Virus record (IMG/VR): IMGVR_UViG_2854208954_000001
Coordinates: 1-64,000 of that record
Source: a virus
Lineage: Duplodnaviria > Caudoviricetes
Length of the DNA stretch: 64,000 bases
Direction: 5' to 3' (one strand)
Under the pieces are notes generated by a model. The model saw nothing but the letters and a program-made list of their open reading frames with translations. It was not told the DNA's origin and did not search any database. The position numbers and the translations under genes are program-made. Positions within the stretch are counted from its first letter, which is position 1. Each line of letters starts with the position of its first letter. Below are positions 13,174 to 16,601 of this stretch, piece after piece.

Positions 13174-14383
13174 AAAGCTGATACCATATATCAACAATGC
13201 ACGAACACATAGCGAGGAGCAAATAAAGAAACTGCGCTCATCACTGCGTGAGTTCGGCTTTATCAATCCTGTAATCATCGACAGAGATTTCAATGTCATA
13301 GCCGGACACGGAAGAATTTTAGCTGCAAAGGCTGAAAACATTTCAGAAGTTCCTTGTGTGTTTGTAGATTATCTCTCCCCTGCTTAAAAGAAAGCCTATA
13401 TACTGGCAGACAACCGTATGGCTATGGACGCCGGCTGGGACGAAGAACTCCTGAGAGTTGAAATTGAGTCCTTACAGGGTGCTGATTTTGATATCGGTCT
13501 TACGGGATTTGATGAAACAGAAATCGCAGAGCTTTTTGCCGATGATAACGATGATGTAAAAGATGATGATTTTGATGTGGATGGTGAACTAGAAAAACCG
13601 CCTGTAACAAAAAGCGGTGACCTGTGGCTGCTCGGCAATCACAGACTTATCTGCGGTGACAGTACAAAGGAAGAAACCTACACTCGCCTTATGGACGGTA
13701 AGAAAGCAAACCTTGTTGTTACTGACCCACCGTACAATGTCAACTACGAGGGCAGTGCAGGAAAAATCAAGAATGATAACCTTGAAAACGATAAGTTCTA
13801 TCAGTTCTTGCTTGATGCCTTTCAGAATACTGAAAAAGCTATGGCAGATGATGCGAGCATCTATGTTTTCCACGCAGATACAGAAGGACTAAATTTCAGA
13901 AAAGCATTTTCAGACGCAGGCTTTTATCTTTCCGGAACTTGTATCTGGAAAAAGCAAAGCCTTGTACTTGGCAGAAGTCCGTATCAGTGGCAGCACGAGC
14001 CTGTTCTGTTCGGTTGGAAGAAGAACGGCAAACACAAGTGGTACTCCGACAGAAAGCAGACCACAATATGGGAGTTTGACAAACCGAAGAAAAACGGCGA
14101 CCACCCCACAATGAAGCCTGTTCCGCTGATTGCATATCCGATTAAAAATTCAAGTACGACAAACTGCATCGTACTTGATCCCTTCGGCGGCAGCGGAAGT
14201 ACACTTATAGCCTGTGAGCAGACAAATAGAATCTGCTACACATCAGAGCTTGATGAAAAATACTGCGATGTAATCGTGAAAAGATATATTGAACAGGTTG
14301 GCACAACGGAGAATGTGTATGTAATGCGTGACGGTCAAAAAATCAAGTTTGATGATTTGGAGGTTAATGCTGATGAACAGTAA
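13136..14383 (+). pseudogene. ParB-N + N4/N6 DNA methyltransferase interrupted by in-frame TAA at 13385-13387
   Basis: Both ORFs share a frame: YLSPA*KKAYILADNRMAMDAGWD; DPPY and DPFGGSGST motifs intact. Confidence 0.85.
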
Positions 14384-16601
14384 GGCATTAACCCTTGGCA
14401 GTCTGTTTGACGGTTCAGGAGGGTTTCCGTTAGGAGGACTTCTTTCCGGTATTACACCTGTGTGGGCATCGGAAATAGAGCCGTTCCCAATTCGTGTGAC
14501 AACGAAAAGACTGCCGCAGATGAAACACTACGGTGATGTATCAAAATTAAACGGAACAGAACTTCCACCTATTGATATTATCACATTCGGAAGTCCTTGC
14601 CAGGATATGAGCGTTGCAGGGAAAAGAGCCGGTCTGTCGGGAGCAAGAAGTAACCTCTTTTATGAGGCGGTAAGAATTGTAAAGGAAATGAGGTGTGAAA
14701 CGAATGGCGAATATCCAAGATTTGTGGTGTGGGAAAATGTCCCAGGAGCATTCTCGTCAAACAAGGGCGAAGACTTCAAGGCAGTCCTCGAAGAAATCTG
14801 TAAAATCAAAGACGATACATTATCTGTATCTCAACCTGAAAGCGGAAAGTGGACAAACGCAGGAGAAATCGTGGGAGATGCGTTCTCCGTTGCGTGGCGA
14901 GTGTTTGACGCTCAATATTGGGGAGTCCCCCAACGAAGAAAACGCATCTACCTTGTCGCAGATTTTGCAGGAGAATGTGCCGGAGAAATACTATTTGAGC
15001 AAAAAAGCCTGTCAGGGGATTCTCCGCAGAGCATCGGCACGAGGAAAACAACTACCACCGATGTTAAAGATTGCATTGGAGCAACAGGCTTTGACGGATA
15101 CAATGGTCAGCTGACAGGAGATGTATCCTCGACAATCGGTGTGAACTGCGGAATGTCCACAGGCAGAAACGGTATAGTTCTCAACGACCAGGGCGGCAAC
15201 AGAATGGATATTACCGAAGATGTGACCTGCACACTCCGTGCCGAGGCACACCACTCACCTTGTGTGTTGGAGTCGGCAGGCTTTTGCACGGAACATTCTG
15301 CAAAGAGCCGCGGCATAGGTTATGAGGAAGAAACCTCACCTACGATTCGTGCCGGTACAGTTCCGGCAGCTGTGATGTTTGAAAACCACAGTCAGGATAC
15401 AAGATACACAGGACCCGTTGAGAAAGCTCCCACAGTTCTTTCAACCTACGGCACTGGTGGGAACAATCAGCCGTTTGTAATTGAAACACCAAAGACACTT
15501 AAAATCAGAAGTGGCTGTGACGGTGGCGGAAAGGGTGCTTTAGTTCAGGACAATAAGTCTGCTACTCTGTCCTGCAACAATGACCAGACGGTATTTGTAC
15601 CGCAAGCCTACGGCATCTGCTCAAAGGACAGCAATTCAATGAAGTCAGATAATCCGAACAGTGGTTTTTACAAGGCGGAAACTTCACGAACACTTGATTT
15701 AAACGGAGGAAATCCCTCTTGTAATCAAGGCGGTATTGCTGTTGTTTGTGTAGATCAGGGTGGTGGAAAATCATCTTGTAGCATTACAGAAAACTACTCA
15801 CCAACACTCACTTGCACACACGGAGGAGAACCTGCAGTCTGTTTACAAGGTTCAATGATTGGAAGAAAAGATGAGAACGGTCCACAGGGTGACGGTATAA
15901 ACGAAGATGTCAGCTTTACCCTTAATGCAACGGACAAACATGCGGTTGCCTATGGGATTGACCGTTCAGCTTTTAATCAAGGGCAAAACGCAAAGTACGG
16001 CTTTGCCGTTGAAACGGAAAAACAGCCGACAATGGTTGCAAAAGGCCCGGGTGCTGTTGCTGCTCCTACATACAGTTCGAGCAAAGCGTCTTTCTTTACG
16101 AAAGTTCAAGAAGAAAAAGCAAATACACTGGTTGCTACCGATTACAAAGACCCACCTATCGTAAATGATAATTCAAGCTACGGCTTTTATCCGCAGATGA
16201 AAGCGGAATGTATTACCTTTACAAAAGAAAAAAGCGGATGCATTGTAAACGGAACAAATCCGGGATTTCAGAACGGAGTCCTTGAATCAAGCTATATCGT
16301 GAGAAGATTAACACCAACGGAATGCGCCAGACTGCAAGGCTTTCCCGATTGGTGGTGCAGTAACCTGGAAACGGAAAACCCCACAGATGAAGAACTTGAT
16401 TTTTGGAGAGATGTTTTCAGAACCTATACCGAGATTAACGGCACAAAAGTTAAATCTGACAAACAGATAATCAAGTGGCTGAAAAATCCTCATTCTGATT
16501 CAGCCGAGTACAAAATGTGGGGCAACGGAGTGGCACTCCCTTGCGTTTGTTTTGTACTTTCAAGGATTGCAAGCCTTAACAAAACTATATCTACGGATTG
16601 A
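14373..16601 (+). CDS. Phage C5 DNA methyltransferase with a long multi-module TRD region
   Basis: LFDGSGG, GSPCQD, ENVPG, PQRRKRIY, RRLTPTECARLQGFPD, GNGVALP. Confidence 0.95.
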   Translation: MNSKALTLGSLFDGSGGFPLGGLLSGITPVWASEIEPFPIRVTTKRLPQMKHYGDVSKLNGTELPPIDIITFGSPCQDMSVAGKRAGLSGARSNLFYEAVRIVKEMRCETNGEYPRFVVWENVPGAFSSNKGEDFKAVLEEICKIKDDTLSVSQPESGKWTNAGEIVGDAFSVAWRVFDAQYWGVPQRRKRIYLVADFAGECAGEILFEQKSLSGDSPQSIGTRKTTTTDVKDCIGATGFDGYNGQLTGDVSSTIGVNCGMSTGRNGIVLNDQGGNRMDITEDVTCTLRAEAHHSPCVLESAGFCTEHSAKSRGIGYEEETSPTIRAGTVPAAVMFENHSQDTRYTGPVEKAPTVLSTYGTGGNNQPFVIETPKTLKIRSGCDGGGKGALVQDNKSATLSCNNDQTVFVPQAYGICSKDSNSMKSDNPNSGFYKAETSRTLDLNGGNPSCNQGGIAVVCVDQGGGKSSCSITENYSPTLTCTHGGEPAVCLQGSMIGRKDENGPQGDGINEDVSFTLNATDKHAVAYGIDRSAFNQGQNAKYGFAVETEKQPTMVAKGPGAVAAPTYSSSKASFFTKVQEEKANTLVATDYKDPPIVNDNSSYGFYPQMKAECITFTKEKSGCIVNGTNPGFQNGVLESSYIVRRLTPTECARLQGFPDWWCSNLETENPTDEELDFWRDVFRTYTEINGTKVKSDKQIIKWLKNPHSDSAEYKMWGNGVALPCVCFVLSRIASLNKTISTD
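14704..15114 (+). CDS. Overlapping +1-frame gene inside the C5 MTase (EcoHK31I-beta-like polypeptide)
   Basis: GAGGTG RBS 8 nt before ATG 14704; protein-like STLSQILQENVPEKYYLSKKACQGILRRASARGKQLP. Confidence 0.7.
   Translation: MANIQDLWCGKMSQEHSRQTRAKTSRQSSKKSVKSKTIHYLYLNLKAESGQTQEKSWEMRSPLRGECLTLNIGESPNEENASTLSQILQENVPEKYYLSKKACQGILRRASARGKQLPPMLKIALEQQALTDTMVS

Follow-up and report, generated by a model that had tools for sequence, protein, structure and literature searches.

A +1-frame open reading frame embedded in phage C5 cytosine methyltransferase genes is conserved, very probably translated and possibly a module of the enzyme

The 64,000-nucleotide stretch of Caudoviricetes DNA analysed here (IMG/VR record IMGVR_UViG_2854208954_000001, positions 1 to 64,000; hereafter the window) contains a C5 cytosine methyltransferase gene with a second open reading frame (ORF) embedded in its +1 frame. 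The window is part of a Ruminococcus phage provirus, whose record (G000) is 79.5 kb long, and it matches PV036439.1 (NatCom_28274, Ca. Heliusvirales) at 99% identity. The methyltransferase gene (14373..16601, + strand) encodes a 742-residue protein that matches PF00145 with an E value of 1.9e-42 and shares 99.3% identity with its PV036439.1 counterpart, which is labelled a hypothetical protein there. The C5 motifs I, IV (PCQ), VI (ENV), VIII (QxRxR), IX and X are all present in this chain. Approximately residues 1–195 hold motifs I–VIII, followed by a long region with multiple target recognition domains (TRDs) and, at the C terminus, motifs IX and X. Motif VIII (QRRKR; 14931..14945, + strand) served as the anchor for comparing reading frames across homologues. 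On the same strand and in the main frame, a normal motif IX (RRLTPTECARLQGFP) lies near 16302–16349 and motif X near 16521–16541.

The embedded ORF (P0001) runs on the + strand from an ATG at 14704 to a TGA at 15112–15114 (14704..15114), a length of 136 codons plus the stop. It begins just before motif IV/VI of the main frame and ends about 55 codons beyond motif VIII. The longest +1 open frame in the ORF list is slightly larger (14695..15114), with a GTG start and 139 codons. A Shine–Dalgarno-like GAGGTG (14690..14695, + strand) stands 8 nt before the ATG and is made by the Met-Arg-Cys codons of a conserved K-E-M-R stretch in the main frame. The frame, its ribosome-binding site and its C-terminal peptide are all as described in an earlier reading of this DNA, made from the letters alone (the original prediction). 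Two parts of the ORF can be distinguished. The N-terminal ~85 codons (14704..14958, + strand) overprint motifs IV–VIII and are kept stop-free, with a sequence set mainly by the main frame; residues 86–131 (14959..15096, + strand) form a conserved C-terminal domain opposite a main-frame stretch that is an unconserved linker.

The open frame is a general feature of the homologues. A search that used only the aligned N-terminal domain of the main-frame protein, and was therefore blind to the +1 frame, gave 80 viral contigs, and 75 loci could be anchored on motif VIII (QxRxR). Of these 75, about 71 have an open +1 frame over the same 130–160 codons, extending 54–111 codons upstream of the anchor (mostly 82–97) and 49–68 downstream. 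The +2 frame closes 8–25 codons after the anchor in every locus. When the synonymous codons of the main ORF were shuffled, the fraction of trials with a stop-free +1 span was 2.3% for the window and 0.05–18% for 16 other divergent homologues; the real frame is open in all 17 of these lineages. Elsewhere in the window gene, 618 codons contain 35 stops in the +1 frame. The frequent interruption in homologues that would have spoken against a gene within a gene is not what these loci display, and the original prediction of a real embedded gene holds in this respect.

The same +1 ORF lies within the annotated methylase coding sequence (CDS) of phages from very different hosts: Javan105 (Streptococcus), E. 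coli P1 (dmt), Vibrio phage 24, the mycobacteriophages Porcelain and Omega, Pseudomonas UF_RH7, Caulobacter BL94 and Morganella Mecenats66. We checked the +1 offset from the annotated CDS in all eight, and the ORF is annotated in none of them. An exhaustive profile search with the +1 protein gave 5215 representative clusters at E <= 1e-3. A word-indexed search returned 530 proteins of 129–137 residues from the +1 frame, mostly on short contigs that cut the main gene. In addition, PHROG 16143, a 139-position profile labelled DNA methyltransferase, matches the +1 protein and evidently consists of the embedded ORF.

Several individual loci in the sample are unusual. In one (L041:2501-4000), the main-frame methylase contains three in-frame stops, all of them TAG, with the embedded ORF intact; this phage may use recoded TAG. 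Another (L066:2495-3947) is the sole sampled locus in which the +1 ORF loses its conserved C-terminal domain. Through an indel in a G-run, the +1 leader there reads on into the main-frame linker, the TRD and motifs IX and X. Frame 0 ends 12 codons beyond motif VIII, and the gene is probably broken. A further group of methylases is circularly permuted (L063, L067, L070, L072-L074, L057, L068 and L090, the last from phage FP_Toutatis). These enzymes start near MKHLGDITK..PCQ (motifs III/IV) and end with motif X followed by GSLFDGIGGFPL..WASEIEEFPIAVTK (motifs I–II), and their genes still contain the +1 ORF.

To see which frame is under selection, we aligned the codons of 58 non-redundant loci and measured the entropy at each of the three +1-frame codon positions. 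Over +1 residues 5–85, the values are 0.73, 1.35 and 0.85 bits, with the peak at the third position of the main frame. Over residues 88–131, they become 0.76, 0.67 and 1.28 bits, and the peak moves to the third position of the +1 frame, with many first and second positions invariant. The same switch is apparent when one 96-nt segment of the window is compared with phages of six host genera (Escherichia, Vibrio, Pseudomonas, Caulobacter, Morganella and Mycobacterium), a comparison that covers phages of Firmicutes, Proteobacteria and Actinobacteria. The +1 peptide is identical at 18–25 of 32 positions (56–78%), with the consensus KYYLSxKACxGILRRAxxRGKxLPxxLxxAL, whereas the main-frame peptide from the same nucleotides is of low complexity and identical at 3–11 of 32 (9–34%). 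The wobble switch and these identities together indicate that +1 is the selected frame in the last ~45 codons and that the main frame there is a linker. The pattern is codon-phased and the amino acid replacements are conservative, which RNA or DNA signals would not produce. On this comparative evidence, the embedded ORF is very probably a real, selected coding frame.

The start site carries its own signature of constraint. In the subfamily of the window, a common start column holds a start codon in 52 of 71 loci (47 ATG and 5 GTG). The embedded ATG is built from a main-frame Asn or Asp codon and the G of the following Gly codon, and the Asn/Asp codons that supply the 'AT' end in T in 39 of 39 cases, compared with a background of 55–58%. 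The Arg of the main-frame E-M-R is encoded by AGG at 38 of 40 distinct sites, compared with 15% AGG among the Arg codons of the same genes, and this AGG creates a GAGG 8–10 nt upstream of the embedded ATG. In a second subfamily, the ATG lies ~10 codons further upstream and is preceded by AAGGAG. P1 has a GGAG 7 nt before the embedded ATG at L003:2186 (NC_005856.1, about 66728), and Vibrio phage 24 has one 9 nt before its embedded ATG. Judging by these codon biases, synonymous choices in the main frame preserve both the embedded start codon and its Shine–Dalgarno sequence, which favours independent internal initiation over frameshifting. The synonymous-site constraint that the original prediction proposed to look for is visible in the T-ending codons, in the AGG codons and in the wobble switch at residues 88–131. 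Translation of the embedded ORF is strongly indicated by these comparisons.

The conserved C-terminal domain of the embedded protein is described by the motif LSxIL..VPEKYYLSxKACxGILRRAxxRGKxLPxxLxxAL. We modeled the protein with AlphaFold2 using a 50-sequence alignment. Residues 1–85 are predicted to be disordered, with a predicted local distance difference test (pLDDT) score of 48–58, and two helices are predicted at residues 100–113 and 119–131 with a pLDDT of 73–89. Neither the protein nor its profile has a significant match in Pfam, NCBIfam, PDB sequences or, by Foldseek, the PDB. The sole library match is PHROG 16143, and a search of the ESM Atlas matched only the protein's own unnamed clusters.

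In its genetic layout, the nearest precedent for this arrangement is M.EcoHK31I, an alpha/beta C5 methyltransferase whose alpha gene also encodes the beta polypeptide, in a different frame; the beta chain, 61 residues long, bears the motif IX that is missing from alpha and is required for activity (Lee et al. 1995, as described in PMC2836561 and PMC3404938). The original prediction had drawn this parallel, and it holds for the layout: in both systems an alternative frame of a C5 methyltransferase gene encodes a small polypeptide lying wholly inside that gene. The defining feature of the beta chain, its motif IX, is not shared. Motifs IX and X are both present in the phage main chain, and a profile–profile comparison (hhalign) of the +1 family with the motif IX–X region of the family found no similarity (E 0.38 over 3 columns). 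We therefore rejected a motif IX identity for the +1 protein. The embedded ORF also overlaps motifs IV–VIII rather than the distal region of the gene, and its conserved part is a 45-residue two-helix domain. Since motifs IX and X remain in the main frame, the architecture differs from that of M.EcoHK31I, as the original prediction had also noted. The embedded protein, as far as its sequence tells, is analogous to M.EcoHK31I beta, not the same. A phage gene lying wholly inside the +1 frame of another is also familiar from the spanin genes of lambdoid phages, in which Rz1 is embedded in Rz and the two products form one complex. The proteins and their function are unrelated to those described here, for which a partnership would be an extrapolation from sequence.

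C5 methyltransferases are known to reassemble from fragments, both in M.AquI and in artificial splits; in M.AquI, the alpha chain holds motifs I–VIII and the beta chain holds the distal variable region with motifs IX–X (PMC3404938). The window differs from M.AquI in that its enzyme is a single 742-residue chain, with motifs I–VIII and IX–X together, accompanied by a free small protein. Other loci come closer to the split arrangement. The +1 ORF extends past its usual stop in 8 of the 75 loci, and in three of these (L037, L054 and L068) it takes in the recognition modules together with motifs IX and X, with frame 0 stopping ~57–68 codons after motif VIII. In these three and in P0227, as in M.AquI, frame 0 ends after motif VIII and a second chain holds the TRD and motifs IX and X; unlike M.AquI, the phage beta chain begins ~85 codons upstream, inside the alpha CDS and in the +1 frame, and is headed by the conserved domain. 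Beta-type fusions of this kind are spread over several lineages (P0227, with 333 member sequences, P0147, P0135, P0150, P0235 and P0131) and make up approximately half of the top 150 representatives of the profile search, a share to be read in light of the fact that gene callers favour these proteins. A close relative of L054, L051, has the standard layout, and we conclude that single indels after the domain switch between the layouts. In the alpha/beta layout, an active enzyme would require translation from the embedded start. AlphaFold2 modeling of one natural beta-type fusion, P0147, with a 17-sequence alignment gave a mean pLDDT of 38.9 and was unusable.

A different class of variant joins motifs I–VI directly to +1 sequence (P0123, P0209, P0141, P0239, P0205 and a protein of phage FP_Toutatis). 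Many database proteins of this form, with a +1 tail, are 240–250 residues long; their junction positions differ, and our search was enriched for them. For one isolate, a Cellulosilyticum ruminicola prophage, the NCBI draft (L086) and an independent assembly (L087) differ by an indel inside the methylase, so some of the frameshifted forms in the databases are sequencing or assembly errors. Because the junctions differ and the two assemblies of this one isolate disagree, we read the 240–250-residue proteins as frameshift mutants or errors and rejected them as a sign of programmed frameshifting. The methylase of two cluster J mycobacteriophages, Porcelain (L005, 1511-2711) and Omega (L098, 411-1715), is annotated as two CDSs, one with motifs I–VIII and the other with motifs IX–X. 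In Porcelain, the second CDS shares the frame of the embedded ORF, with stops between them. Given this annotation and the presence of the embedded ORF, the cluster J phages combine a naturally split enzyme with the embedded gene.

A segment resembling the embedded domain may also exist in a canonical enzyme. In E. coli Dcm, hhalign places the domain immediately behind motif VIII, with an E value of 0.0095 and a probability of 4%, and the domain hidden Markov model matches Dcm residues 310–326 (LAQLLDPMVEAKYILTP) with a score that was reached by 3 of 1000 shuffles. This weakly similar segment of Dcm lies ~26 residues after motif VIII and corresponds to LSQIL..V.EKYYLS in the embedded protein. 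In Dcm, which stands here for the Dcm/EcoRII-type enzymes, the segment is in the main frame, unlike the +1 domain of the phages.

Several explanations of the embedded ORF have to be weighed. That it is a chance or relic frame which is never translated, conserved as a side effect of constraints on the main frame or on the nucleic acid, is scarcely credible. Overlapping ORFs are often artefacts, and main-frame conservation does explain the N-terminal two thirds of this one; in the last 45 codons, however, the main frame is unconserved and the variation across three phyla falls at the +1 wobble position with conservative replacements, the frame is open in every one of the 17 divergent lineages against the shuffle expectation, and the start site is kept by synonymous choices. 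A beta chain of the M.EcoHK31I type that supplies motif IX shares the genetic layout of a small chain in another frame of the methylase gene (PMC2836561), but the main chain carries a normal motif IX (RRLTPTECARLQGFP) and the +1 family has no similarity to the IX–X profile; such a chain is very improbable. The C-terminal domain could instead be reached by +1 ribosomal frameshifting or transcriptional slippage, which would yield a truncated trans-frame isoform (motifs I–VI or I–VIII plus the domain) rather than a free protein of 136 residues. Some 85 codons ahead of the domain are free of +1 stops, and a shift at any of them would suffice; many of the 240–250-residue proteins (P0123, P0141 and P0209, as well as that of FP_Toutatis) join motifs I–VI to +1 sequence. 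Yet their junctions vary, as expected of random frameshift mutations or sequencing errors in a set enriched by the search itself, and we saw no conserved shift site, without having made a scan aimed at slippery sites. In each subfamily, the open frame keeps a start codon and a Shine–Dalgarno sequence at its 5′ end through synonymous main-frame choices, and a frameshift needs neither. We regard this route as improbable.

The more serious alternative is that the +1 protein is translated but acts outside the enzyme, as a regulator, a small DNA-binding protein or a counter-defence factor. The main chain already has all ten motifs, the +1 protein belongs to no known family, and a largely disordered chain with a basic helical hairpin, as predicted here, is found in many regulators and inhibitors. 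Set against this are the confinement of the +1 ORF to this methylase clade, its retention wherever the main gene is intact, and its repeated in-frame fusion to the recognition region and motifs IX–X, which fits a module of the enzyme better than an unrelated factor. We consider a separate role rather unlikely. On balance, we lean toward the embedded ORF being a translated overlapping gene whose product is a module or subunit of the methylase. The main reason for reading the domain as an enzyme module is that the fusions place it next to the recognition domain. Taken by itself, the step from a translated protein to a methyltransferase module, supplied in trans or as part of a beta chain, is evenly poised, although no other mechanism is better supported. 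Several observations weigh against it: the main chain looks complete on paper, with motifs I–X, and may not need a partner; the likeness to Dcm is weak (hhalign probability of 4%), and the provirus's other, canonical C5 methyltransferase gives no such match; no solved structure matches the embedded protein by sequence or fold; and the fused and frameshifted variants could in part be decaying genes or assembly errors.

If the embedded product does belong to the methylase, the following arrangement would account for the observations. Translation would most likely start independently, at the embedded Shine–Dalgarno sequence and ATG that lie in the methylase mRNA shortly before motif IV. Residues 1 to ~85 would be a disordered leader, a by-product of main-frame motifs IV–VIII. 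Function would reside in the C-terminal ~45 residues, which form a basic two-helix domain opposite a main-frame stretch that provides a flexible linker between motif VIII and the recognition modules. In most phages, the domain would be produced as a small chain of its own that binds the enzyme non-covalently, at or beside the boundary between the catalytic and recognition domains, and might thereby influence methylation. In a minority of lineages, it would form the N terminus of a beta chain that also holds the recognition domain and motifs IX–X, beside an alpha chain with motifs I–VIII, a single indel after the domain being enough to interconvert the two layouts. As to its origin, we can only speculate. 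A frameshift after motif VIII in a canonical enzyme might have produced an alpha/beta pair with a long overlap, and a second indel might then have rejoined the recognition region and motifs IX–X with frame 0, so that the displaced segment was left over as a small protein of its own. Such a history would fit a main-frame linker and a +1 leader that both look like junk, and layouts that interconvert easily. Tentatively, one may go further and suppose that thousands of phage C5 methyltransferases, Dmt of P1 among them, are obligate non-covalent two-chain enzymes in which the segment after motif VIII has been displaced to the +1 frame and is supplied in trans or as the head of a beta chain, single indels switching the layout.

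If translated, the embedded ORF would give a whole clade of phage anti-restriction methylases an unrecognised second product, one that probably works together with the methylase. Few of the same-strand overlapping genes known from tailed phages would then be conserved as widely. Members of the clade are common in gut phages and prophages and occur in P1, streptococcal Javan prophages, vibriophages and cluster J mycobacteriophages. For phage annotation, the ORF is missing from the P1, Omega and NatCom records. When these broad-specificity methylases are expressed heterologously as tools, optimising the codons would remove the second gene unnoticed. The finding also bears on the assembly and evolution of split and multi-TRD methyltransferases. 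We found no paper describing an overlapping ORF in phage C5 methylases; the hidden, out-of-frame HNH within the ShiLan methylase insertion (PMC11855218), which we considered, is a different element.

The surroundings of the embedded ORF contain further methylase features. The start of the window cuts a second, canonical C5 methyltransferase gene (3-1016, + strand; PF00145, E 2.8e-54), which has no homologue of the embedded ORF and no likeness to the +1 domain. Within the 742-residue enzyme, the region between motifs VIII and IX (15078-16292, + strand) holds ~9–11 short T-L/T-V recognition-like modules in the main frame. Directly upstream of the C5 gene lies a 321-residue ORF with a DPPYN motif (13418-14383, + strand), which overlaps the start of the C5 gene by 11 nt. 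In PV036439.1, the gene corresponding to this ORF is labelled a DNA methyltransferase; the syntenic gene of the Cellulosilyticum ruminicola prophage draft (L086) has ParB_N and N6_N4_Mtase domains. The two genes appear to form one translationally coupled methylase module.

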